DNA from: an uncultured bacterium
Lineage (GTDB): Bacteria > Actinomycetota > Acidimicrobiia > Spongiisociales > UBA5794
NCBI GenBank assembly: GCA_963801165.1
Contig: CAWDDT010000009.1
Span: 32,001-96,000 of the forward strand
DNA length: 64,000 bases
Direction of reading: 5' to 3'
Shown: positions 3,652-17,149 of the stretch, piece after piece
Position numbering within the stretch: position 1 is the first letter of the stretch
Layout: every line of letters begins with the position of its first letter
The notes under the pieces: model-generated
Seen by the model: the letters and a program-made list of their open reading frames with translations, nothing else
Told to the model about the DNA's origin: nothing
Databases searched by the model: none
Program-made: the position numbers and the translations under genes

Positions 3652-3861
3652 CCGAGTCCGTCCGTGGCGTTGCGCCAAAGAGGCACCGCGGGATGGCGTC
3701 TGCCCTTTCGCCGCCGTTGTCGGGCGTCGCTGCGACCAATCCATGTCCAACTATTACTAGCAATAAATCTGTCGTGTGAGCGAGCACCGAGGGAATCCGC
3801 GTCGTATAGTGGAATAGTAAATGACTGTACATTTACATAAGTTCGGTTCTTCAGATTGGAC

Positions 3862-4350
3862 ATGCGCATGTTTCGAAGAATCACCTCCGCCATCGCTACC
3901 GTTGCCCTGATCGCCTTCTTCGTGGCCGCTTGCTCCAGCGACTCGACCACGACGACGACAACAGCCGCAGCATCGTCGACGACTGCAGCCAATGCCTCGG
4001 GAACGATCACCGTCACCCTGGCCGATGTTGATGCCAATACCATGCTGCTCACTCCTACCCCAACTAGTGCGCCCGCCGGCGAGGTGACGTTTGAGGTCAC
4101 CAACAGCGGCGACAGGGAGCACGAGTTCGTTGTCGTCCAGACCGACCTGGCTCTGGCTGATCTCCCCTTCGACGCGGCGGCTGACGAGGTCCTCGAGGAC
4201 GAAATGACGGTCGTCGATGAGATCGGAAGCATCATGCCGGGCGAGACCAAGACTCTCACCGTGACCCTGGAGTCAGGGGGCTATGCCTTGATCTGCAACC
4301 TCGAGGGCCACTTCCGCAAGGGAATGCGGGCAGCCTTCACCGTCAACTAG
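3862..4350 (+). CDS. Blue-copper (cupredoxin) lipoprotein
   Basis: Lipobox FVAAC, Thr-rich linker, type-1 Cu ligands (HEFVV...C-NLEG-H-FRKG-M). Start could be 3856, 3862 or 3868. Confidence 0.85.
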   Translation: MRMFRRITSAIATVALIAFFVAACSSDSTTTTTTAAASSTTAANASGTITVTLADVDANTMLLTPTPTSAPAGEVTFEVTNSGDREHEFVVVQTDLALADLPFDAAADEVLEDEMTVVDEIGSIMPGETKTLTVTLESGGYALICNLEGHFRKGMRAAFTVN

Positions 4351-4437
4351 GGGGGCGTTCATTTCGGTGGCCGGCTCGTCCGTGGCCACCGTGCGGAAGC
4401 AGGTTGGGAGGCGTTTCTCATCACGACAGCACGCACG

Positions 4438-4650
4438 ATGAAGTGGGGGCAGGGCGCTGCTTGGGCGCTTGTCATCTTCGCCTATTTCGCCGTGTTCACC
4501 GTGTGGTTGCCTTCGCGAATCCTCCACCTGTCTGCTGTTGCGAGCGCCCCGGCGGCGATTCACGATCTCATCGGAGCGGGGGCCTGGCTCGCTCTCTTCG
4601 TCATCGGGATGTGGGCACTGCGCCGCCTGCAGTCGAGAGGTCGGATCTGA
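4438..4650 (+). CDS. Small two-helix membrane protein
   Basis: 70 aa with two hydrophobic segments; its TGA overlaps the next ATG at 4650. Confidence 0.65.
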   Translation: MKWGQGAAWALVIFAYFAVFTVWLPSRILHLSAVASAPAAIHDLIGAGAWLALFVIGMWALRRLQSRGRI

Positions 4651-6434
4651 TGAAGGCGTTGAGCTTCTTCGACGAGAACATCCCGTGCCTCGCGGCATGC
4701 CCTGTGCACACCAATGCAGGGGCATACGTCGCGGCGATTGCCGACGGGTACGACCAACAGTCATACCTGACCGCCCGGCTCCCCAACCCGTTTGCATCTG
4801 TTTGCGGCCGGGTCTGCGCCGCCCCCTGTGAAGATGCGTGCCGGCGAGGAGAGATCGACCGTCCGATCGCCATCCGTGCGTTGAAGAGATTCGTTACCGA
4901 GCAGTACGGGGTAGAAGCAGGACCCGACTCGGAGTGGGGCGACGTCGTTGCCGCTCCCGCCCAGGAGAGACGCGAGCGCGTCGCCATCGTGGGTGGTGGC
5001 CCGGCCGGCCTATCGGCGGCCCACGACCTGCGACGCATCGGCTATCAGGTCACACTCTTTGAAGCCGCGGGGGTGCTGGGGGGAATGATGGTTCTGGGGA
5101 TCCCCGAGTATCGGCTCGATCGGAGACTCCTGCACGCAGAGATCGATGCCATCCTCGCGCTCGGTGTGGACGTTCGGCTGAGTACCCGTCTTGGCACCGA
5201 CGTCACCCTCGATGAGTTGCGCGATGACTACGACGCCGTCTTCCTGGCTCTCGGGGCGACCCGGGGCAGGGATCTCGACATCGAAGGCCACCAGGCAGAC
5301 GGGGTGATCCGTGCGTTGGAATTCCTGATCAACATCAACCAGGGCTTCCACGTCGACGTCGGCGAGCGGGTGGTCGTCATCGGCGGCGGCAACGTTGCAA
5401 TGGACGCGGCCAGGACGGCTCTGCGGGCCGACGAATACCTGACCATGCGTGAGGGTGCGGATCGATACGAAGCCCGCGAGGAGCGCGGCCTCATCACCCA
5501 AGCCGTGGACGCGGCGCGAACCGCCGTGCGCGCAGGCGCTCACGAGGTCACGGTGGTATCACTCGAGTCGCAGGCAGAGATGCCCGCCGATGAGTTCGAA
5601 GTCCACGAGGCAGCGGTGGAGGGTATCGACTTCCTCCACAGAAGGGGCCCGTCCCGGATCCTGACCGAAGGAGATGTCGTCGTGGGTTTAGAAACCATCG
5701 GTGTCAAGTCGGTCTTCGATACGAGCGGTCGGTTTGCCCCGGTGTTCGATCCGGATGACCGGAGGGTGATCCCGTGCGATACGGTGATCCTCGCCATCGG
5801 ACAATCAGTTGACATTGAGGCTCTCGGAGAGGCAGGGCCCGTGATCTCGCCGCGCCGCACGATTCAAACGAACGATGATTCGAGCACGTCGTTGCACGGG
5901 GTTTGGGCCGGCGGTGACGCCGCAGCCGGGCCGCGCAACTTGATCGATGCGATCGCAGATGGCCGTCGCGCGGCCGCGGCGATCCATACACAGCTCAGCG
6001 GCGCCGAAGCCGAAAAGCCGGCCGAGGGTCAGATGATCGTTCTGGAGCAGTTCCACCGCACCGAGGACCTCTACGATCGGGTGCCGCGCACGCCCGTGCC
6101 CTCTCTTCCTACGGGTCGTCGCGTCGGTCTGCGCGAGGTCGAGCTCGGGTTCACGGAAGCGGAAGCTCGCTGCGAGGCTGCGCGGTGTCTGCGCTGTTTC
6201 GTCAACGTGTTGCTCGATGTCGATCGGTGCGTGCTTTGCGGCCTGTGCGTCGATGTGTGTCCCGTCGACGTCTTATCGATTGTGCCCGCCGCCGAGGTTG
6301 CGCCTGACCTTCCCGTGGGCACCGCTCTGCTTCTGGATGAGGTTGCGTGTATCCGCTGCGCCCTGTGCATCGACCGATGTCCAACTAACGCACTGTCGAT
6401 GGGTTTGTGGTCGGGAATCGGGGTGCCGGCGTGA
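4650..6434 (+). CDS. FAD/NAD-dependent iron-sulfur oxidoreductase (GltD/DsrL-like) with C-terminal 2x[4Fe-4S] ferredoxin
   Basis: PCLAACP...CGRVCAAPCEDAC, FAD motif GGGPAG, GGGNVAMD, GGDAA, EAARCLRC, then CVLCGLCVDVCP and CIRCALCIDRCP. Start set by TGATG coupling. Confidence 0.9.
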   Translation: MKALSFFDENIPCLAACPVHTNAGAYVAAIADGYDQQSYLTARLPNPFASVCGRVCAAPCEDACRRGEIDRPIAIRALKRFVTEQYGVEAGPDSEWGDVVAAPAQERRERVAIVGGGPAGLSAAHDLRRIGYQVTLFEAAGVLGGMMVLGIPEYRLDRRLLHAEIDAILALGVDVRLSTRLGTDVTLDELRDDYDAVFLALGATRGRDLDIEGHQADGVIRALEFLININQGFHVDVGERVVVIGGGNVAMDAARTALRADEYLTMREGADRYEAREERGLITQAVDAARTAVRAGAHEVTVVSLESQAEMPADEFEVHEAAVEGIDFLHRRGPSRILTEGDVVVGLETIGVKSVFDTSGRFAPVFDPDDRRVIPCDTVILAIGQSVDIEALGEAGPVISPRRTIQTNDDSSTSLHGVWAGGDAAAGPRNLIDAIADGRRAAAAIHTQLSGAEAEKPAEGQMIVLEQFHRTEDLYDRVPRTPVPSLPTGRRVGLREVELGFTEAEARCEAARCLRCFVNVLLDVDRCVLCGLCVDVCPVDVLSIVPAAEVAPDLPVGTALLLDEVACIRCALCIDRCPTNALSMGLWSGIGVPA

Positions 6435-7165
6435 GCATGGGCAGTCGCTTCCGCAACAGCACATTGGGCAGGTCCATCATCCGCAACCCCGACAGGGTGA
6501 CGACCCGTGATCGGGCCGCAGGCCACTGGTCAAACTTCTTCCTCCACATCTACCCGGTGAAGATTCGGCGAGAAGAGCTGGCTTTCAAGTATTCCTGGTA
6601 CCTGGGGGTGGCGTCGGCCACGCTCTTCATCTCGCTCATCGTCTCCGGTGTCTATTTGATGTTCTTCTATGTGCCATCGCCGGGCACGGCATACGGGGAC
6701 ATCCAATCCCTCCAGACGCAGGTCGCTTTCGGGCAGTACATCCGCAACGTGCATCGCTGGTCGGCGCACCTCATGATCATCGCGGTCGCGGCGCACATGG
6801 CCAGGGTGTTCTACCGCGGGGCCTACAAGTCGCCACGGGAGTTCAACTGGGTGATCGGCGTCGTGCTGCTGGTTCTCACTTTCTTGTTCTCTTTCACCGG
6901 GTATCTCCTGCCCTGGGATCAGCTGGCCTACTGGGCGGTCACGGTGGGAACGTCGATGGCCGCATACGTGCCGCTTGTCGGTAAGTCCGCCTCGAATATG
7001 CTCCTTGGAGGCAACGAGGTGGGCTCGGCGACGCTCCTTCGCTTCTACGTGCTCCACGTCGCGGTGTTGCCCACCCTCATGGTCACATTGATTGCGATCC
7101 ACCTATGGCGCTGGCGCAAGGATTCCATGCTCGACACGGGCGGGCAAGATCGGGGAGAGTCCTGA
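6431..7165 (+). CDS. Cytochrome b6-like N-terminal subunit of a Rieske/cytochrome b complex
   Basis: Heme His pairs HRWSAHLMIIAVAAH and HVAVLPTLMVTLIAIH; FTGYLLPWDQLAYWA. GTG overlaps the upstream TGA. Confidence 0.92.
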   Translation: MSMGSRFRNSTLGRSIIRNPDRVTTRDRAAGHWSNFFLHIYPVKIRREELAFKYSWYLGVASATLFISLIVSGVYLMFFYVPSPGTAYGDIQSLQTQVAFGQYIRNVHRWSAHLMIIAVAAHMARVFYRGAYKSPREFNWVIGVVLLVLTFLFSFTGYLLPWDQLAYWAVTVGTSMAAYVPLVGKSASNMLLGGNEVGSATLLRFYVLHVAVLPTLMVTLIAIHLWRWRKDSMLDTGGQDRGES

Positions 7166-7686
7166 TGGCCGACGAACAGCCGATCATCGTCGGGGGCAAG
7201 CGGGTTCTCGGGGTCGTCCCCGGAACGCCCGCGGCGGGCGATCGGAAGGTGCCGGAAGAGCAGGACTCGGTGATGGTATGGCCGCACCTTCTCGTGCGCC
7301 ACGCGGTGACAGCTCTTGCGGTGCTCTTCCTGGTGTTGTTGTTGGCCCTTGCCTTCGATGCACCTTTGCGGTCCATCGCCAACCCGAACCTGACGCCGAA
7401 CCCGGAGAAGGCCCCCTGGTACTTTGCGGGCCTTCAGGAGCTCCTGAGCCATTTCCATCCCATGGTGGCAGGCATCCTCGTTCCGGCAGGCATCGTTGTA
7501 GGTGCCATGGCGCTCCCTTATCTCGATAGGAGCCCGGAGACGAGCCCACGTCGTCGCAAGGTTGCCGTCCTGACATTCACGGTCTTCCTTGCTGCCTGGA
7601 TTGCGATCACGCTCATCGGCTTTGCCTTCAGGGGCCCGGACTGGAGCTGGGTATGGCCGTGGCAATCGTGGTATGGAGAGTTATGA
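7165..7686 (+). CDS. Cytochrome b subunit IV-like (split cytochrome b C-terminal part)
   Basis: WPHLL, ANPNLTPNPEKAPWYF, LPYLD; three TM helices; translationally coupled. Confidence 0.88.
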   Translation: MADEQPIIVGGKRVLGVVPGTPAAGDRKVPEEQDSVMVWPHLLVRHAVTALAVLFLVLLLALAFDAPLRSIANPNLTPNPEKAPWYFAGLQELLSHFHPMVAGILVPAGIVVGAMALPYLDRSPETSPRRRKVAVLTFTVFLAAWIAITLIGFAFRGPDWSWVWPWQSWYGEL

Positions 7687-8192
7687 CTGAGCAACAACTC
7701 CACACGAGAAGAGCGTTTCTCTCCCGGATGTGGGAGATCGGCGCATCACTCATGGCTGTGGCCGGTGCGTGGACGACGTGGGACATCCTGCGCCCGTCGG
7801 CTTCGGCGAGCCAATCCGGGCCGGTGCGGACCATCCCTGCCGCGGCGGTGCCCGGCACCGGCGTGATTGAAATCGCAGCCGCACGAGCGTACTTGACCAA
7901 GGAGGGAGACGCAGTTGTCGCTCTGTCGTGGAAGTGCCCCCATCTCGGGTGTCGCGTGCCGTGGTGTGACTCGTCGCAGGAGTTCGAGTGCCCGTGCCAT
8001 GGCTCGATCTTCAATCGAGTGGGCGAGCGCCGGGAGGGGCCTGCGCCGCGAGGAATGGATAGGTTTGCGGTTACCACAGAGGACGGGGTACTCGTCATCG
8101 ATCCCAACACGGTGATCAGCGGCCCACCACCGGGAAAAGAGACCATCGACGAGCCTCCCGCGGGCCCGCGATGTGTGGGAGGGGGTTCCTGA
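7683..8192 (+). CDS. Rieske [2Fe-2S] protein
   Basis: Tat-like TRRAFL anchor; CPHLGC and CPCHGS boxes; GPAPR. Confidence 0.93.
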   Translation: MTEQQLHTRRAFLSRMWEIGASLMAVAGAWTTWDILRPSASASQSGPVRTIPAAAVPGTGVIEIAAARAYLTKEGDAVVALSWKCPHLGCRVPWCDSSQEFECPCHGSIFNRVGERREGPAPRGMDRFAVTTEDGVLVIDPNTVISGPPPGKETIDEPPAGPRCVGGGS

Positions 8193-8641
8193 TGGCTGAG
8201 CACGTCGACCCCGAACTGGAAGCGTCGACGCGGCGATGGATGCAGGCGGGCGTCGTGCTGATGGTTCTCTTTGCGGTCGCGTTTCCCCTTTATCGGTTCT
8301 ATGAGCCCGAGGCGCGGGCCGCGGCGAGGGACCGCCAACTTGCTGATCTTCAGGCCGAGGGGCAGAACGTATACCTGGACAGTTGCAGCTCGTGCCATGG
8401 ATCGGACGGTGAAGGGGTGGATGCCCCCGCGCTCAACTCGAAACAGTTCCTGACCGATGCGACCCATAGCCAGATCGCATCCATCGCAGCCCACGGTATC
8501 CCAGGATCTGAGATGCCGGCATGGAGTGTCGACTACGGTGGCCCGCTGACTTCGGAACAGATCGATGCGGCGGCAAGCTTCATCGAGTCGTGGAAACCCA
8601 ACGCGCCTGATCGGCCTGACTGGCGAACGATCGGGGAGTGA
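8192..8641 (+). CDS. Membrane-anchored monoheme cytochrome c
   Basis: N-terminal TM helix, CSSCH, distal Met in EMPAW. Confidence 0.9.
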   Translation: MAEHVDPELEASTRRWMQAGVVLMVLFAVAFPLYRFYEPEARAAARDRQLADLQAEGQNVYLDSCSSCHGSDGEGVDAPALNSKQFLTDATHSQIASIAAHGIPGSEMPAWSVDYGGPLTSEQIDAAASFIESWKPNAPDRPDWRTIGE

Positions 8642-9572: not shown

Positions 9573-9621
9573 CTTCGAGGGTCGCACAACAGCAACCCGT
9601 TTCGACCCCCCTGCCGCTTTG

Positions 9622-9657
9622 GCGTCGCAAACCGGAATATGTTCCGGTTTGCGACGC
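9622..9657. repeat. Palindromic REP-like element, copy 1
   Basis: GCGTCGCAAACCGGAA-TATG-TTCCGGTTTGCGACGC, perfect 16-bp arms. Confidence 0.9.
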
Positions 9658-9679
9658 TAAAAGCCAGGTTTTCGCACAG

Positions 9680-11056
9680 CTAGCCGCAACCTCCGCCGCC
9701 GCTGCCGGTAGCTACGACCGTCGCTGCTTCGCTGGGCAGTTGCTCGGTTCCCGGGATGGATAGATAGGCGGGAACGACGAGCGTGGTGCCGGTCATCCAC
9801 GATCTGACCTGGTCCTGGTAGGCGGCCATGCTCGGCACTGCGGACGATGTTGTGGCCCCAGCAGCGCCGGCGACGACCCAATCCGGCCATATCGCATCAG
9901 CACCAAGGACGCTGGCTTGCCAGGCAGCGTCGCCTCCATCGAGCAGTAGCGCATTGACTCCCTGCAGTCGCAGATCGGTGACGAGACTCCGCGCAGTTGC
10001 GGATTGGTCCGTGTCGACAATCACCAGCGGCTTGTTCTTGTCTGCGGTCGTGATGAGGAGGTCGTCGAGAACAGCGAGGGCTGCCTCGTACTGATCGTTG
10101 CCTGGGGGCACCACCACCGTGCCCTGCATCGGGACGGCAGCCCGGTCCTGTTGATCCCGCAGATCGAGGACAAGGGAGTTGGGAGGGGTCTCCTCGGCGA
10201 TGCGGTTCGCGTCGGACACGATCCATCCCGCCAGGCTGAGCGCATCGATGCTCGGGACCTGTGCCCCGTCGACGGCCACCGCCGCAGGAACCTCAGATCC
10301 CACAGCGAGGATATCGGGCTCCTCGGCGCCGACCGAGAACACGGCGAGCACAACGGCCAGCGCTGCTGCCAGCCCGATAACCGCCTTCGTGGAGCGGCCC
10401 GCGTGAGGCCGAACCACGGGGGGCCTGGGTTCGCCAGCGAGTTGTTCCGGGGTCTTCAAGGCGAAACGCTGCTCGATAATGTACAGGTACCGGAAGGAGA
10501 GAATCACCCCACCGGTGATCACGATGGCGGCGAGCCAGGCAAGCGGATGCCCGTTCAGGCTCTGAACCGCAGCGCCGGCCGGTTCGTAGAAGCTCTGGAA
10601 CCACGATGCCTGCCCTGCGCCATCGAAGAACAGGGCGAACCCGTAAATGCCGAGCACGATCCCGAGCAGGAACACCCAGGCATCGAGCCGCCCGCGGACT
10701 GCCGATACCACCGCGGTGCCGGGGCAGAATCCCCCGAAGTAGAAGCCGACGCCGAACAGGAGACCGCCGAGGAACATCGGCCAGAAGTAGGTCGTGCCAA
10801 TCTCGAGCAGGCCGAGGTCCATCCACCCGAACGCGCTCAGCAACTGGGCACCGATCATTGCGGTGACGAGGGCGGTGAACATGACCCGGTAGACACCCCA
10901 GTCCCTCAGTATGAAGACCGAAGTGAGCTTCTTGGCCGAGCCGAAGCCGGCGCGTTCCAGGAAGAAGCCGAACGCGATACCCACCACCGCGGCCATCACC
11001 AGGTAGGTGGTCGGAGAGCCGCCGTCGAGAGGGAGTATTGGAAAGATCGTGCTCAT
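9680..11056 (-). CDS. YeeE/YedE sulfur-transporter half fused to rhodanese-like domain with C-terminal GGGGCG
   Basis: GIAFGFFLERAGFGS, GGLLFGVGF..GGFCPGT; rhodanese-like LDLRD...LLDGG..AW; ends ATGSGGGGCG. ATG overlaps the upstream stop. Confidence 0.85.
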   Translation of the reverse strand: MSTIFPILPLDGGSPTTYLVMAAVVGIAFGFFLERAGFGSAKKLTSVFILRDWGVYRVMFTALVTAMIGAQLLSAFGWMDLGLLEIGTTYFWPMFLGGLLFGVGFYFGGFCPGTAVVSAVRGRLDAWVFLLGIVLGIYGFALFFDGAGQASWFQSFYEPAGAAVQSLNGHPLAWLAAIVITGGVILSFRYLYIIEQRFALKTPEQLAGEPRPPVVRPHAGRSTKAVIGLAAALAVVLAVFSVGAEEPDILAVGSEVPAAVAVDGAQVPSIDALSLAGWIVSDANRIAEETPPNSLVLDLRDQQDRAAVPMQGTVVVPPGNDQYEAALAVLDDLLITTADKNKPLVIVDTDQSATARSLVTDLRLQGVNALLLDGGDAAWQASVLGADAIWPDWVVAGAAGATTSSAVPSMAAYQDQVRSWMTGTTLVVPAYLSIPGTEQLPSEAATVVATGSGGGGCG

Positions 11057-12312
11057 CGCCACACCTTCTTGAATGCAAACGCAGTCCCAAAGCCGCCGAT
11101 GAACACCGCAGCGAGGAACAACCAGGAGCCGGCTGACAACAGGGCCGCTTCCGAGAGATGATGCGAGGTGCAGCCGCGAGCGAACCGGGTGGCGATGCCA
11201 ACCACGATCCCGCCGGAGAGAGCGAACAGGAGCCGGCTTCGTCGCGAGATGAGGCTCCCGCGGTCGATTCCGAACTTGATCCGACCCGCGATGAGCGCCG
11301 ACACGAATCCGCCGACCGCAATTCCGAGAACGGTCCACGTCAGCCAGTATTCGCTCAGCTTGGTTCCCAGGACGGAACCCCAATATGCATTGGACGCAAC
11401 CTGATCGGGGGCCACCCCGGCGACGGCGAATGCCCCGAGTCGCGAGAACAATCCCGATGCTCCCGGGCCGTGTCCCATCAATGCGAACCCGGCGAGCACG
11501 CTCAGGCCCAGGCCGATCCCGGCAATATAAGGGGACCCGAGCGGTTTCGGCTTTGCGTGGTGCACTCGCAGTACCAGGCGCTTGACCGATCCGAGCACTT
11601 TGCGAGGCAAGGCGAATCTATCTGTCGGGCGCAGGGGCTCACCCTCGTCGCCGTGCTCGCGATACCACTCGGCATGGTGGTGTTCGACGTACTCGGCGTC
11701 AACATTGCCGGTGACCATGCTCACCAGTGCCGGGCGCTCCTCTTTCATGAGCGCGGCCATAGCGAAGTGGACGAAGAAGAAGGCGATGACGACACCGACG
11801 GTGATCAGATGGATGAGCACGAGCGACCTGCCCAGCGAACCACCTCCGGTTCCGAACCACATGAGGAGACCCGTTGTCCCGATGATGCTCGACCCGATTA
11901 GCACGACGGCGCCGAAGGCCTTCTGACCGGCGTTGTATGCGCCCTGGTCCGGCATCGGCAGCGATGGATCAAAGATCTCGGCCTTTGGCTTGACCTTGAA
12001 CCAGATGAGATCGTTGCGGGTGGGGACCAGATCCCGCAGGAAGCGCAGCGAGAGACCATGGGGATCGAGCAAGAAGGACGCAACCAGCACCCCGAACCAC
12101 AGCATCCCCACATACACGTGGACATGGAGCAGACGGGTGGCACCTCCGAAGAGGCTATTCACGGCATTGACATAGAAGCGGGGCCCGATCTGGTATCCCG
12201 AGTTGCTGATGATGGCGATTCCGGTCAGCCACAGGAACAGGAAGCTCGCTGCGTTGTACCAGTGAACGATGCGCTGCTGCAGCGGATGCTTGACGAGAGC
12301 TCTCTCACTCAT
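11053..12312 (-). CDS. PhsC/FdnI-like di-heme cytochrome b anchor fused to a YeeE/YedE half
   Basis: RIVHW, LHVH, YNAGQK, LIHL...FVHF, SMVTG.VD.EYVEHHH.EW; then SPYIAGIGLG...ATRFARGCTS in one uninterrupted ORF. Confidence 0.85.
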   Translation of the reverse strand: MSERALVKHPLQQRIVHWYNAASFLFLWLTGIAIISNSGYQIGPRFYVNAVNSLFGGATRLLHVHVYVGMLWFGVLVASFLLDPHGLSLRFLRDLVPTRNDLIWFKVKPKAEIFDPSLPMPDQGAYNAGQKAFGAVVLIGSSIIGTTGLLMWFGTGGGSLGRSLVLIHLITVGVVIAFFFVHFAMAALMKEERPALVSMVTGNVDAEYVEHHHAEWYREHGDEGEPLRPTDRFALPRKVLGSVKRLVLRVHHAKPKPLGSPYIAGIGLGLSVLAGFALMGHGPGASGLFSRLGAFAVAGVAPDQVASNAYWGSVLGTKLSEYWLTWTVLGIAVGGFVSALIAGRIKFGIDRGSLISRRSRLLFALSGGIVVGIATRFARGCTSHHLSEAALLSAGSWLFLAAVFIGGFGTAFAFKKVWR

Positions 12313-13108
12313 TGTCGGTTGCCTCCGCTTTCTCTGCGAGCATCTGCTCCTCCATCTCCTGCAAAGCGATTTTCTCTGCGCGGTCACGCAGCATCCGCAT
12401 TCCGATCATTGCCCCCATCGCCATGGCACTGGCCACACCCAGCCCGCCGACGGCTTTGCCGAAGCCGTTGCGCCAGAGCATGCTTGTTTCGCTGCCACCA
12501 CCCTGCGGCGGCAGCTTCTCCTGCAGCAACGCCAGATCCTCGGGCAGCCCGCTGAACCGCAGCCTTGGCCGCGGGTTCACGGCATTGGTGGTGAGGGCGA
12601 TGAGCTCGTGCCCGTCGTCGATGGCATTGACGTCGCCAACGCTCACGGTTCTCTCCTTGCCGTCGATCTCTACGACTTCGTAGAACGAGCGGGCGCCGGC
12701 GGGGCATACCTCGAAGCAAGCGGGCGCCTGGCCGTTCTCCACTCGTCCTTCGCACAGGGTGCACTTCTCTAGCTTCTTGGTGTCCTGCGCGACGTATCGA
12801 GCCTCGTAGGGACAGGCGGGCACGCATAGGCCACAGCCGATGCAGAGGTCCTTGTCGACGAGTACCCGTCCGTCTGCAGCCTTGAACGAGGCACCTGTGG
12901 GGCAGGCGTCGACACATGGCGCATCGGCACAGTGGTGGCAGAGATACGGGGCGAACGTCGTGTTGCCGACGACATCGCCATCGTCTTCGAGGAACTTCAC
13001 CCAGTTGCGGGCGCTGGACGGGTCGAGATCGTTGGCAGTGATACATGCCACCTCGCAGGCCCGACAGCCGATGCAGCGCGATATGTCGATACGGAATTGA
13101 AAAGACAT
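12305..13108 (-). CDS. 4x[4Fe-4S] electron-transfer subunit (PhsB/PsrB-like) with C-terminal TM helix
   Basis: CIGCRACEVAC, CHHCADAPCVDACP, CIGCGLCVPACP, CTLC..C..CP. Confidence 0.92.
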   Translation of the reverse strand: MSFQFRIDISRCIGCRACEVACITANDLDPSSARNWVKFLEDDGDVVGNTTFAPYLCHHCADAPCVDACPTGASFKAADGRVLVDKDLCIGCGLCVPACPYEARYVAQDTKKLEKCTLCEGRVENGQAPACFEVCPAGARSFYEVVEIDGKERTVSVGDVNAIDDGHELIALTTNAVNPRPRLRFSGLPEDLALLQEKLPPQGGGSETSMLWRNGFGKAVGGLGVASAMAMGAMIGMRMLRDRAEKIALQEMEEQMLAEKAEATDNE

Positions 13109-13118
13109 CGTTGTTCCC

Positions 13119-15446
13119 CTACGCCGAATTGGGCCGGACTAGACGTACGAAGTTCACGCGCATCCCGGTGCCGCCCGAGAGGGGATCGACTGCGTACTGT
13201 GTCATCAGGGCCGAGTCATCAACGCCACGTTTGTAGGCACGGGTGAGCTGCCGGCTGTTGTGGCCAAAACCGTGGGTGATGTAGACGGCGTCGTCGCTCA
13301 TCCGGTCGGTCACTTTCACCTTGATAGGGCCCTGGCGGACGCCGTCCTGGTTGAGCATCTCGACCAGTTCTCCGTCTGCGATTCCGTAGGCGGCTGCCGT
13401 TGCCGGCGATGCCCAGACCGCGTTCTCAGGGTCGCGCCCGTGGAGGATCGGCGTGTTCTGGGTACGTCCGAAGCTATGGACGGGCGACCGACCGTAGAGC
13501 AAGCGAACGTGCCCGGGTGGAGCTCCTCGTGGCGGGTAGTAGGTAGGCATCGGCTCGTAGCCCGTGGGGTCCTCGCCGGATTCGATCTTGCTCAGCCAGA
13601 CCTCCTCGAGGTCCGGCGAGTAGAGCTGGACGCGACCATCGCCGGCTTCACCCCTGAATGTGGGGAATTCGAAAGGGGCCCCGGCCCGGCCGCTGCCGTC
13701 GGTCCCGAGCCCGTATCCCTGCCGATAAATGGGAAGATTCTCGTCGGTGACCACGTAACCGGTGGCAACGAGGGTGTCCCAATCGACCTTGCCGCCTTCG
13801 GGATCTGAGTTGTACTTGGCAATTGTCGCTTCGGAGAGATCCTCGACCGATTCCCACAACCAGTAGCGTTCCAATCCGAGCTCGGCCCCGATGTCGCGGG
13901 CAATTTGTGCCTCGCCGCGGCTCTCCCCGATAGGTTCCACCGCTTGCTGCATCACGGCCACGAAGGGGTCGCGGCTGCCGCCGCTGCATAGATTGTCGGA
14001 CCGTTCCAGATAAGAAGCCGCCGGCAGGAGCACATCGGCGTACTGGGTTATCTCCGTGGGGAGCACATCGACCACCGCCAGGAATTCGAGTTTCTTCAGT
14101 GCGTCGATGGTCTCTTGCTGTGCGGGCAATGACGTAATGAGGTTCGTCCCGACAACAACCCAGGCCTTGATGGCGCCATCGCGTGTTGCCTGGCGGATAC
14201 CGTTGACGTTGACGCCGACGGCGAACGGATAGCCGGGGTCGCGACGGTCTGCCAGTTCCGGATACTTCGGGAGTTCGGGATAGACCTCTTCGAGGCTGGG
14301 GAGGTGGGCCTGGTTCGGCAGGTAGTAGCCGCCGCGCGATCCCCAGGCGCCGGTGATGGCGACGAGAATCGCCATGGCACGGGCTCGCTGCGTGTCGTCG
14401 CCGTACCAGACTACGTGTCTGCCGGGGTGGAGTGCCATGTGCGGCCCGGCCATCCCGATCATCTGCGCCGATGCCTCTATCTGCTCGGCCGTGAGACCGG
14501 TCTCGGCCGCGGCCCACTCGGGAGTGCTCGTCGCCACGTGTTCGCTGAGGACGTCGAATCCGGCGGTGTAGTCACGAACGAAGTCGCGGTCGTAGAGCCC
14601 GTCGCGGATCAGGATGTGTGTCCACGCCAGGAGCAGCGCCAGGTCGGTTCCAGGCTTGATCTGCAGCCAGATATCTGCGCGCAGGGCTGCGGTGGATCGT
14701 CTGGGGTCCACGACGATGAGATTGGCCCCGCGTGTCGTCGCTTCTACGAATTCCTGCACCTGGAGGTTGTGCATGTTCTCCCCGAGGTGGGAGCCGATCA
14801 GCACGAGGCAATCGGTGTTCGCAATGTCGAGCGGCTCGGGAGACTTCAAGGGATGCCCGAATGTCAGTTGATATCCGACTTCCCGCGGCGCCTTGCATTG
14901 GTCGTACGCGGGATGGGCGTGGTGGGCGGTGCCGATCGCTGCGGCCAGATGCTCGAAATGGGTCTCGGCGGCACCGTGGGTGAGAAAGGCAACCGCGCCC
15001 GGGCCGTCGGCCTCGATGATCTCGCGGAGTCGTGTTCCTATGACGGAGTTGGCTTCGTCCCAGGTGGTATTGCGGAACACCGCCTCCCCGCGCTCGCCGG
15101 TGCGGATCTGGGGGTGCTGCAATCGATCCGTGTCTTCGTGAAAGCCGATACCGCCGATACCGCGCGGGCAGAGCCGGCCTTGACTGAGCGGGTGGCCCGG
15201 TACTCCGCTGATGTGGAGGACTTCGCCCTGTTCGCCGATTTCGACGTTGATGCCGCACTTCCAAAAACACACACCGCACACCGACCGAACGGAGCGAACC
15301 GCGATCGGCGGGTCGAAACGGGGGTGGGCGATATCCGTCTGGGTGGCGCCCGCCTCCTGCTCGAAGAGGATGCTCGCGGCCGCGCCTGCCGATCCGGCAA
15401 AACCGAACTGGATGAATTCGCGCCTGGTATGACCGATAGCACTCAT
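13119..15446 (-). CDS. Molybdopterin oxidoreductase catalytic subunit, thiosulfate/polysulfide reductase (PhsA/PsrA) type
   Basis: Tat TRREFIQ, FS0 CGVCFWKC...LCPRG, putative Mo-ligand QCKAPR, GSHLGENMHN, HPGRH..WYGDD, HSFGRTQN. Confidence 0.9.
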   Translation of the reverse strand: MSAIGHTRREFIQFGFAGSAGAAASILFEQEAGATQTDIAHPRFDPPIAVRSVRSVCGVCFWKCGINVEIGEQGEVLHISGVPGHPLSQGRLCPRGIGGIGFHEDTDRLQHPQIRTGERGEAVFRNTTWDEANSVIGTRLREIIEADGPGAVAFLTHGAAETHFEHLAAAIGTAHHAHPAYDQCKAPREVGYQLTFGHPLKSPEPLDIANTDCLVLIGSHLGENMHNLQVQEFVEATTRGANLIVVDPRRSTAALRADIWLQIKPGTDLALLLAWTHILIRDGLYDRDFVRDYTAGFDVLSEHVATSTPEWAAAETGLTAEQIEASAQMIGMAGPHMALHPGRHVVWYGDDTQRARAMAILVAITGAWGSRGGYYLPNQAHLPSLEEVYPELPKYPELADRRDPGYPFAVGVNVNGIRQATRDGAIKAWVVVGTNLITSLPAQQETIDALKKLEFLAVVDVLPTEITQYADVLLPAASYLERSDNLCSGGSRDPFVAVMQQAVEPIGESRGEAQIARDIGAELGLERYWLWESVEDLSEATIAKYNSDPEGGKVDWDTLVATGYVVTDENLPIYRQGYGLGTDGSGRAGAPFEFPTFRGEAGDGRVQLYSPDLEEVWLSKIESGEDPTGYEPMPTYYPPRGAPPGHVRLLYGRSPVHSFGRTQNTPILHGRDPENAVWASPATAAAYGIADGELVEMLNQDGVRQGPIKVKVTDRMSDDAVYITHGFGHNSRQLTRAYKRGVDDSALMTQYAVDPLSGGTGMRVNFVRLVRPNSA

Positions 15447-17044: not shown

Positions 17045-17091
17045 ACTGCGAGCATACCCACCCCGCCCAGAGGCCGCCCCCCGCCACTCTG

Positions 17092-17127
17092 GCGTCGGAA
17101 ACCGGAATATGTTCCGGTCTGCGACGC
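17092..17127. repeat. Palindromic REP-like element, copy 2
   Basis: GCGTCGGAAACCGGAATATGTTCCGGTCTGCGACGC; 34/36 identical to 9622-9657, with similar flanks. Confidence 0.9.
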
Positions 17128-17149
17128 AAGAAGCAGAGGGGGAGTCCGC

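Follow-up and report, generated by a model that had tools for sequence, protein, structure and literature searches.

A molybdoenzyme operon with a cytochrome b fused to half of a YeeE-type channel and a candidate cysteine-tipped sulfur carrier in an uncultured acidimicrobiial bacterium

The window analysed here, a stretch of 64,000 nucleotides from an uncultured acidimicrobiial bacterium (contig CAWDDT010000009.1 of assembly GCA_963801165.1), encodes on its minus strand, within 9680..15446, four tightly coupled open reading frames (ORFs) which follow each other head-to-tail in the order g1-g2-g3-g4 (Table 1). The first two are predicted to specify the molybdenum (Mo) and the iron-sulfur (FeS) subunit of a quinone-linked redox enzyme, g3 a cytochrome b fused with one half of a YeeE/YedE-type sulfur channel, and g4 the other channel half joined to an additional transmembrane (TM) helix, a rhodanese-like domain and a glycine-rich tail. 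The best start of g3, an ATG at 12312 with GGAGG ahead of it, overlaps the stop of g2, and the start of g4, an ATG at 11056, shares ATGA with the stop of g3. A first-pass annotation of this DNA had described a four-gene operon for a thiosulfate or polysulfide reductase; all four ORFs lie on the minus strand where it had placed them, and the Pfam families agree with the contents it had assigned.

Table 1. Features of the operon and its flanking repeat (positions in the window; residues of the encoded protein in brackets).
Feature	Position	Strand	Size or basis
g1, predicted Mo-bisPGD (molybdenum bis-pyranopterin guanine dinucleotide) catalytic subunit with twin-arginine translocation (Tat) signal, PsrA/PhsA/SrrA lineage	13119-15446	-	775 amino acids (aa); Pfam, NCBIfam, PDB
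g1, putative Mo ligand Cys184	14895-14897	-	alignment to 2vpw_A Cys173
g2, predicted four-cluster (4x[4Fe-4S]) ferredoxin subunit	12305-13108	-	267 aa; Fer4_11 E 5e-24 and related Fe-S families
g3, cytochrome b::YeeE fusion	11053-12312	-	419 aa
g3 N-part, FdnI-type di-haem cytochrome b (1 to ~225)	11638-12312	-	PF01292 Ni_hydr_CYTB E 3e-18
g3 linker, basic, predicted cytoplasmic (~226-259)	11536-11637	-	12 K/R in loop 182-261; no stop or frameshift
g3 C-part, PmpA-like C-half of YeeE/YedE channel	11053-11535	-	PF04143 Sulf_transp model positions 178-309, E 2e-11
g4, channel half with rhodanese-like domain and arm	9680-11056	-	458 aa
g4 N-part, PmpB-like N-half of YeeE/YedE channel	10457-11056	-	PF04143 model positions 1-196, E 2e-15
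g4 extra (sixth) TM helix (225-243)	10328-10384	-	hydropathy 2.57; basic loop (6 K/R) ahead
g4 rhodanese-like domain without catalytic Cys (~270-390)	9887-10249	-	PF00581, AlphaFold2, Foldseek
g4 C-terminal arm, ends GSGGGGCG, Cys457 penultimate (444-458)	9683-9727	-	predicted local distance difference test (pLDDT) 34-49
58-nucleotide (nt) repeat	9607-9664; second copy 17077-17134	.	copies 88% identical; hairpin with perfect 16-bp stem

The catalytic subunit g1 has the three-domain MopB layout (PF04879 Molybdop_Fe4S4, PF00384 Molybdopterin and PF01568 Molydop_binding, all above cut-off). Its residues 7-13 form the twin-arginine motif TRREFIQ, with a hydrophobic stretch behind it, which bears out the Tat signal of the first-pass annotation and predicts export to the outer face of the membrane. 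Its closest solved relative is Thermus thermophilus PsrA (2vpw_A; E 1.2e-158, 533 bits), with the next PDB match at 162 bits (FdhF-type) and with ArrA and FdnG at 87 and 82 bits, and the NCBIfam models score 401 bits for PhsA, 251 for Fdh-alpha, 84 for ArrA and 37 for TtrA. The PhsA equivalog NF012032, at 401.3 bits, stays below its cut-off of 694, and identity to the PhsA which PGAP annotates on a plasmid is only 28%. In the alignment to 2vpw_A, Cys184 and Arg343 of g1 occupy the positions of chain residues Cys173, presumably the Mo ligand, and Arg332. On these scores g1 is placed closest to the PsrA/PhsA/SrrA lineage and not to Fdh, Nap, Dms, Arr or Ttr, which agrees with the nearness to Psr and Phs proposed earlier. 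PsrA, PhsA, SrrA and archaeal SreA form, according to the part of the source available, one lineage with a cysteine as Mo ligand that sequence does not divide by substrate, and of which all characterised enzymes are reductases (PMC10100899). A quick tree of Mo subunits, built without curated Psr, Phs, Srr and Arr references and hence no test of clade membership, places an acidobacterial relative that is accompanied by YeeE genes (locus L021, Acidobacteriaceae) as sister to relatives without them.

The FeS subunit g2 is most similar in the PDB to PsrB (2vpw_B, E 2e-36); FdnH (1kqf_B) matches it at E 1e-22. Hydropathy gives it a single hydrophobic helix, C-terminal at residues 219-237, which FdnH also has and PsrB lacks, just as the FdnH-like helix had been called in the first pass.

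In g3, the families PF01292 and PF04143 share one reading frame. The N-terminal part, which scores 66.6 bits on PF01292 against a cut-off of 30.1, is identified thereby as a four-TM di-haem cytochrome b; its His17, His65, His168 and His182 are invariant in 16 of 16 aligned homologues, and His168 and His182 align with His155 and His169 of FdnI (1kqf_C), so that the FdnI-type anchoring proposed before is supported. The formate dehydrogenase gamma equivalog TIGR01583 reaches 97.6 bits, below its cut-off of 115.85, and the database name 'formate dehydrogenase gamma subunit' on g3 homologues is therefore an unjustified over-annotation, one example of the many database names that are wrong for such genes. 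In the channel part, Cys381 in an RGCTS motif is the sole cysteine of g3 and invariant in the same 16 homologues.

The fusion itself, the central claim of the first-pass annotation, holds up from several sides. It runs from the beginning of the cytochrome b right through the YeeE part in 45 of 57 clusters of g3 homologues, down to 51% identity, the remaining 12 being fragments or cytochrome b alone, and at all 13 genome loci with the fused gene (L003-L015) both parts are in the same frame. In salt-marsh data of a different study, a 4897-nt contig aligns over 9600-12350 with 66 substitutions and not a single gap; shorter contigs of two further runs cross 11500-11700, the region for which read support had been asked, likewise without gaps, and the linker is crossed gap-free by contigs of runs X5 and X6. 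Larger g3-related fusions, in proteins of 735-2095 aa, were not found, which is weak evidence only. In two genomes of the same class, YeeE C-half matches begin from g3 residue 209 (G198:C1:70035-70688 and G054:C86:6694-7344, in open frames of 292 and 661 aa), where a linker with an HHH motif is present and the cytochrome b absent; these ORFs possibly represent other fusion partners.

The first pass had named g4 simply a second YeeE half. The N-half is indeed there, and the protein goes beyond it with the sixth TM helix, the rhodanese-like domain and a tail of GGC(G/N) type; this cysteine-less domain with its SoxY-like cysteine arm is the feature most informative about mechanism and had been overlooked. 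Besides Cys457 the only cysteine of g4 is Cys111 of the channel half, invariant in 31 of 31 homologues within a GGFCPGT motif. The 215 residues after the extra helix are acidic (8 K/R against 27 D/E), which together with the basic loop before the helix places the rest of the protein, rhodanese-like domain and tail, probably on the outside of the membrane. AlphaFold2, supplied with a 31-row alignment, models g4 at a mean pLDDT of 70.1 and a predicted template modelling score (pTM) of 0.50, with a confident alpha/beta domain at about 270-390 (pLDDT ~85-95) and a last stretch of 15 residues at 34-49. Foldseek matches this domain to rhodanese domains (TM-score on target 0.66-0.68, E 3e-3), and the g4 family profile matches the rhodanese domain of Uba4 at E 2e-4, with an Asp where Uba4 has the catalytic cysteine; no cysteine is conserved in residues 112-456. 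A search of g4 alone against PDB sequences with phmmer gave nothing at E up to 10, and the family profile against the PDB gave rhodanese domains only and no YeeE structure. The model and the profile thus point to a rhodanese fold devoid of the rhodanese catalytic cysteine.

In the tail, Gly455, Gly456 and Cys457 are invariant in 31 of 31 homologues, followed by Gly or Asn; among listed homologues aligned past residue 400, 54 of 55 end in GGC[GN], the exception ending in REGC, and ten more distant proteins of about 395-415 aa with the same layout end in GGCGG. The outside domain is rare, with 18 representatives among 1.84 billion proteins. In SoxY, which has GGCGG at its C-terminus, the cysteine of this motif binds Sox-pathway sulfur intermediates at the tip of an arm that swings, as described in the accessible portions of PMC6067878 and PMC5336275.

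The 13 fused loci belong to Actinomycetota/Acidimicrobiia, one Myxococcota and two metagenome-assembled genomes (MAGs) of Ectothiorhodospiraceae. Their gene order is g1-g2-g3-g4 as far as each contig reaches; g1 is found in 12, g2 in all 13 and g4 in ten of them, all misses falling at contig ends. In a class sample of 301 genomes, the full-length fusion occurs in the genome of the window only, five others having the YeeE half and three the cytochrome b alone. The operon is rare and patchy in its class and, at the same time, scattered over at least five phyla, a distribution that suggests lateral spread. In the genome of the myxococcotal locus L013, two adjacent NIR_SIR genes (G304:C1:2235820-2237614; open frames of 373 and 419 aa), DsrAB-like, appear to lie about 7 kb from the fused operon if, as their coordinates imply, both are on the same large contig.

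Elsewhere the parts of the operon exist in unfused form, which the first-pass annotation had likewise missed. Cytochrome b and YeeE half are separate genes in different frames at L016, L017, L021 and L028; at L016 and L028, both from Myxococcales, these are cytochrome b and C-half. In a MAG labelled Ignavibacterium album (L017), six genes encode a Mo subunit, an FeS subunit with TM helix, a cytochrome b, the C-half, the N-half and, as a separate gene, a TM-anchored rhodanese-like protein that ends in REGC; a protein similar to this last one, with TM helix and rhodanese-like domain, ends in GTGCS at the acidobacterial locus L021. The published I. album genome has a three-gene Psr/Phs-like cluster and lacks assimilatory sulfate reduction, the accessory genes being unmentioned in the part of the paper available (PMC3362086); L017 may correspond to that cluster. 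A cultured carrier of the unfused version is the bacteroidotal Chondrinema litorale WSW3-B12, whose plasmid NZ_CP111047.1 (246578-252515, locus tags OQ292_RS27040-27070; L121) encodes a PsrA-like protein (40% identity), PsrB, NrfD/PsrC, two YeeE halves and a TM-anchored protein with a cysteine-less rhodanese-like domain, the single cysteine of which lies in a GGCS end. A second rhodanese-like protein on this plasmid has no cysteine at all.

Beyond these relatives, the channel and carrier parts accompany other enzymes. A scan of metagenomes seeded with GGCGG-type proteins returned at least 479 loci, of which 80 were examined (L041-L120). A PmpA-like gene lies directly upstream in 72 of the 80, the other eight starting at a contig edge, and where at least 700 nt of upstream sequence are available an FdnI-type cytochrome b gene lies directly upstream in 50 of 52 loci, the cytochrome b mostly forming the C-terminal domain of a ~900-aa multihaem protein. 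Of the 26 loci that offer 4.4 kb or more of upstream sequence, 24 have an octahaem gene (~480 aa) which matches PDB 1sp3, the Shewanella octahaem tetrathionate reductase (Otr), at E 1e-155; the two exceptions, L104 and L106, have instead a PsrA-like enzyme with an NrfD-type anchor. Among complete tails, 59 of 69 are of the GGC type (GGGCG 34, KGGCG 10, SGGCG 7, and others) and ten are not. An example of this widespread Otr-like operon is L047:3237-9233. From gene content and order, the split channel with its Cys-arm carrier is to be seen as a portable kit, always placed beside a predicted outer-face quinone-linked redox enzyme, and the operon in the window as a variant of the kit that has been fused to the enzyme's own anchor. 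A soxY variant that adjoins otr in lucinid symbionts is described in the available text of PMC11237559.

All families involved are known, and several characterised systems resemble parts of the operon. To Thermus PsrABC (PDB 2vpw-2vpz) it is tied by PsrA and PsrB, the best solved relatives of g1 and g2, and by the equivalents of the Mo-ligand Cys and Arg332, which are kept. It differs from Psr in its anchor, which is an FdnI-type di-haem cytochrome b and not NrfD-type like PsrC, in the split YeeE channel fused to that anchor and in the FeS subunit's own TM helix. The Psr of Wolinella is reportedly accompanied by Sud, a sulfur transferase and rhodanese-fold protein outside the membrane; a rhodanese-fold protein beside the enzyme on the outside is what the two have in common, whereas the g4 domain is membrane-tethered and cysteine-less, with its only outside cysteine on the arm. 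With PhsABC of the Salmonella or Escherichia coli plasmid type, the operon shares the lineage of the Mo subunit, PhsA being the best NCBIfam model for g1, and presumably the PF01292-type cytochrome b anchor; PhsC is not known to have a transporter domain, and g1 differs by its low score on the equivalog and its low identity to plasmid PhsA. FdnGHI (1kqf) resembles it in the Tat-exported Mo subunit, the FeS subunit with C-terminal TM helix and the four-helix di-haem cytochrome b, and differs from it in that the catalytic subunit of the window is Psr-like and its anchor below the TIGR01583 cut-off.

On the side of the channel, PmpA/PmpB and YedE1/YedE2 consist likewise of two half-size YeeE parts with one conserved cysteine each, in the order pmpA then pmpB, but the halves encoded in the window are not free-standing, one being attached to the cytochrome b and the other to TM helix, rhodanese-like domain and arm. 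PmpA corresponds to the C-half of YeeE and PmpB to its N-half, an essential cysteine being present in each, the conserved cysteines of the half-channels correspond by description to TsuA Cys293 and Cys91, and hand-over of sulfane sulfur from SoxYZ to SoxT1A is proposed (PMC11582611, available part); YedE1E2 imports zero-valent sulfur, according to what is accessible of PMC10812762. SoxY probably resembles g4 in the single Gly-flanked cysteine at the extreme C-terminus of a peptide which in g4 is predicted to be flexible and outside, and the distant relatives of g4 even have the GGCGG end; g4 has no SoxY fold, however, and its arm is tethered to the membrane and hung from the rhodanese-like domain. 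The Otr operons contain the same accessory kit of cytochrome b, PmpA-like half and PmpB::rhodanese protein with GGCG tail, with the differences that an octahaem cytochrome c replaces the Mo enzyme and that a multihaem protein, not a channel half, is the fusion partner of the cytochrome b. In literature that left subscription journals mostly uncovered, neither a cytochrome b::YeeE fusion nor a Psr-type operon with split YeeE and a Cys-tailed rhodanese-like carrier was found described, as the first pass had already surmised for a PhsC-YeeE fusion; within this coverage no account exists of such a combination of parts, of the fusion or of a tethered arm.

These observations suggest that enzyme, arm and channel work together as a single unit, with Cys457 as a shuttle that moves sulfane sulfur among the exterior, the Mo funnel and the channel, which we regard as likely. 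A supercomplex of reductase and transporter, possibly serving sulfur respiration or disproportionation, had also been surmised in the first pass. The four proteins would assemble into a quinone-linked redox module on the plan of formate dehydrogenase-N or PhsABC, with the Mo and FeS subunits sitting outside on the di-haem cytochrome b, and a two-piece YeeE channel of the PmpA/PmpB (YedE1E2) type of which one half is covalently held by that cytochrome b. To these comes the tethered carrier of rhodanese-like domain and Gly-rich tail, on which Cys457 would bind sulfane sulfur as a persulfide or polysulfide in the manner of SoxY. The arm may collect zero-valent sulfur outside the cell and present it in the Mo funnel, where menaquinol-derived electrons would reduce it to sulfide, or else hand it over, possibly in the order Cys457, Cys381 of g3, Cys111 of g4, to cytoplasmic acceptors of the TusA/DsrE type. 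Hydropathy puts Cys381 probably toward the outer and Cys111 toward the inner side, and charge counts suggest that the two channel halves are inserted oppositely.

A structure prediction for the complex of g1 (residues 40-775) and g4 (246-458) gives weak support to such a unit, with a score of 0.59, the best of three controls reaching 0.00; the mark applied is reached by 58 of 80 solved complexes and two of 110 mismatched pairs, with scores up to 0.60 in only seven of those 80 and in both passing mismatches. Half or more (at least 50%) of the contacts are common to the runs, and the pLDDT of the partner is at least 73.

The lean to the reductive direction comes from the characterised members of the lineage, all reductases, and from a [NiFe] hydrogenase as possible donor side; unit and reductive direction taken together make up a proposal that we hold tentatively, at not quite an even chance. 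In a bolder extension, only slightly less probable, the Cys-tipped arm tethered to a half-YeeE would be a new class of sulfur carrier, the true substrate of Psr- and Otr-type enzymes would be protein-bound sulfur, and the fusion would hard-wire respiratory enzyme, swinging-arm carrier and transmembrane sulfur relay into one complex. Redox chemistry on the outside and sulfur translocation would then be coupled mechanically.

Several points weigh against this proposal. Many acidobacteriotal loci consist of Mo, FeS and cytochrome b genes without YeeE or carrier genes, and the redox module thus does not need channel and arm. Topology is drawn entirely from hydropathy and charge counts, the g4 protein of the window, taken by itself, scores 18.7 bits on PF00581, below the cut-off of 22.2, and the SoxY fold PF13501 is matched neither in g4 nor anywhere else in the genome of the window, so that the likeness of the arm to SoxY is one of analogy and not of homology. 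The g1-g4 prediction lends weak support and returned no interface, and the whole family is known here from genes and models. Finally, a reductive enzyme destroys what the channel would import, which makes the proposed direction less economical than its opposite.

That opposite is the main alternative, unlikely on balance and yet to be taken seriously. The same machine would run in reverse: the Mo site would oxidise sulfide and load the sulfur on the arm at Cys457, electrons would flow through the Fe-S clusters and the two b haems to menaquinone on the cytoplasmic side, and the arm would load the YeeE importer, giving a proton-motive redox loop like that of Fdn-N and imported sulfur for cytoplasmic oxidation or assimilation. 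This is the simplest account of the union of enzyme, arm and importer, with an enzyme that makes the importer's substrate, and explains the coupling to the importer more economically. The build, of FdnH/FdnI type, is that of a dehydrogenase working in the periplasm, the hosts include Ectothiorhodospiraceae with DsrAB-like pairs, and the genome of the window has TusA, DsrE and an LbpA-like gene. Oxidation of sulfide to S0 by menaquinone is exergonic by textbook potentials, and this counts in its favour as well. Characterised members of the YeeE family, so far as the two sources are available, import (PMC10812762; PMC11582611). Against it stand the PsrA, PhsA and SrrA enzymes, every characterised one of which is a reductase according to the accessible part of PMC10100899, and the genome itself, 98% complete, in which neither a match to the SoxY family nor a NIR_SIR (DsrAB-type) gene turned up.

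Less probable is that channel and arm have nothing to do with the sulfur chemistry of the enzyme and form an independent uptake system for thiosulfate or S0 in assimilation, with no more than the operon and one polypeptide in common with the reductase anchor and no sulfur exchanged between arm and enzyme, the Mo enzyme acting on free polysulfide or thiosulfate. That the pair of PmpA-like protein and PmpB::rhodanese::Cys-tail protein comes without a g1 match at 77 of 80 metagenome loci, and that the acidobacteriotal Mo/FeS/cytochrome b relatives come without the pair, would fit such an independence, as would the usefulness of reduced-sulfur uptake to a genome without a match to the siroheme sulfite reductase family. 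The pair is, however, still joined elsewhere to a cytochrome b (50 of 52 loci) and to a sulfur-active octahaem enzyme (24 of 26), the in-frame fusion with cytochrome b is retained down to 51% identity, and the complex prediction lends g1-g4 contact weak support. The lack of NIR_SIR, moreover, is order-wide and hence unspecific, with none in 31 genomes of families f1-f5, and it was dropped as an assimilatory clue. In the class sample, the figure is 61 of 121 genomes. Among ten other operon-bearing genomes, three have NIR_SIR.

Selenium in place of sulfur makes for a yet fainter possibility, in which the product of an SrrA-like selenite reductase would bind to the Cys arm, forming a selenopersulfide, and then enter the cell by way of a YedE-like selenium channel. 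The g4 protein matches models of YedE selenium transporters weakly (32.8 and 25.2 bits against cut-offs of 200 and 350), and the genome of the window has a selD gene (G000:C9:522433-523359; 397 bits, above cut-off) with one in-frame TGA, which probably encodes a selenocysteine-containing selenophosphate synthetase. Against selenium, the closest solved relative is the Thermus Psr, and the kit also partners an Otr-like enzyme. Sulfur is far more abundant than selenium in salt marsh and soil, which speaks against it too. Cys-arm carriers and PmpAB/YedE1E2, too, are documented for sulfur. In favour of selenium, PsrA, PhsA and SrrA are one lineage that sequence does not divide (PMC10100899, available part), and two proteins with rhodanese domains, 38 and 45 kDa in size, belong to the sole srr operon known, as given in the accessible text of PMC12481199. 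The idea that sequencing or assembly produced the fusion of cytochrome b and YeeE, through a lost stop codon or a frameshift, is refuted by the 45 of 57 independent clusters with full-length fusions, the 13 in-frame loci and the gap-free contigs of other studies, with no stop or frameshift between the domains and no point found in its favour, and has practically no chance.

The proposed unit of enzyme, arm and channel touches on the question of how zero-valent sulfur, which is poorly soluble and unstable, is handled at a periplasm-facing Mo enzyme and then passed across the membrane. Direct genetic evidence of a physical link between the two processes comes from the conserved fusion in which a half-channel is attached to a respiratory cytochrome b, and likewise from the SoxY-like arm; a testable hypothesis follows on the natural substrates of Psr-like and Otr-like enzymes, namely sulfur or selenium bound to a carrier. 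With Chondrinema litorale WSW3-B12 as a cultured carrier of the unfused version, and perhaps with Ignavibacterium album, the way to experiments is opened.

In the genome of the window, a string of genes at G000:C6:264311-273044 (L039) encodes TusA, two DsrE-family proteins, a GcvH-like (LbpA-type) protein, the small and large subunits of a [NiFe] hydrogenase, an HdrD-like CCG/Fe-S protein, HycI, HypC and a lipoate-protein ligase, and by its composition appears to link the hydrogenase with sulfur trafficking; [NiFe] hydrogenase and TusA/DsrE clusters of this genome are a possible donor side. Convergent with the operon, on the plus strand at 3856-8641, lies a cluster for a cupredoxin, a 676-aa GltD-like Fe-S flavoprotein, a Rieske protein, a cytochrome c and a split cytochrome b6 plus subunit IV, an unusual quinol oxidase cluster of the bc/b6f type which could be a quinol sink or source for the Mo enzyme.

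Outside the four genes no conserved neighbours were seen in nine related loci, for which 43 flanking ORFs were scanned; one ArsR-family gene and a TauE gene are close to L013 only. The 58-nt repeat brackets the operon, one copy just past the stop of g4 and the other about 1.6 kb beyond the 5' end. A 38-nt core of it gives 26 strand-hits in the genome with up to six mismatches, and the repeat looks like a dispersed genome repeat of the repetitive extragenic palindrome (REP) kind, whose copy after g4 possibly marks the 3' boundary of the operon.

DNA near-identical to the stretch occurs in soil and salt-marsh metagenomes. In one salt-marsh metatranscriptome run, six short contigs map to the stretch; five of them lie in g1, at the g2/g3 boundary or in g3 and the sixth on the repeat, a hint that the operon is expressed, DNA being possible in such libraries. 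A few kb from the operon, an ORF at 18775-19239 matches the T4 gp19 tail-tube protein (PF06841, E 6e-43), which suggests a remnant of a contractile tail or injection system.

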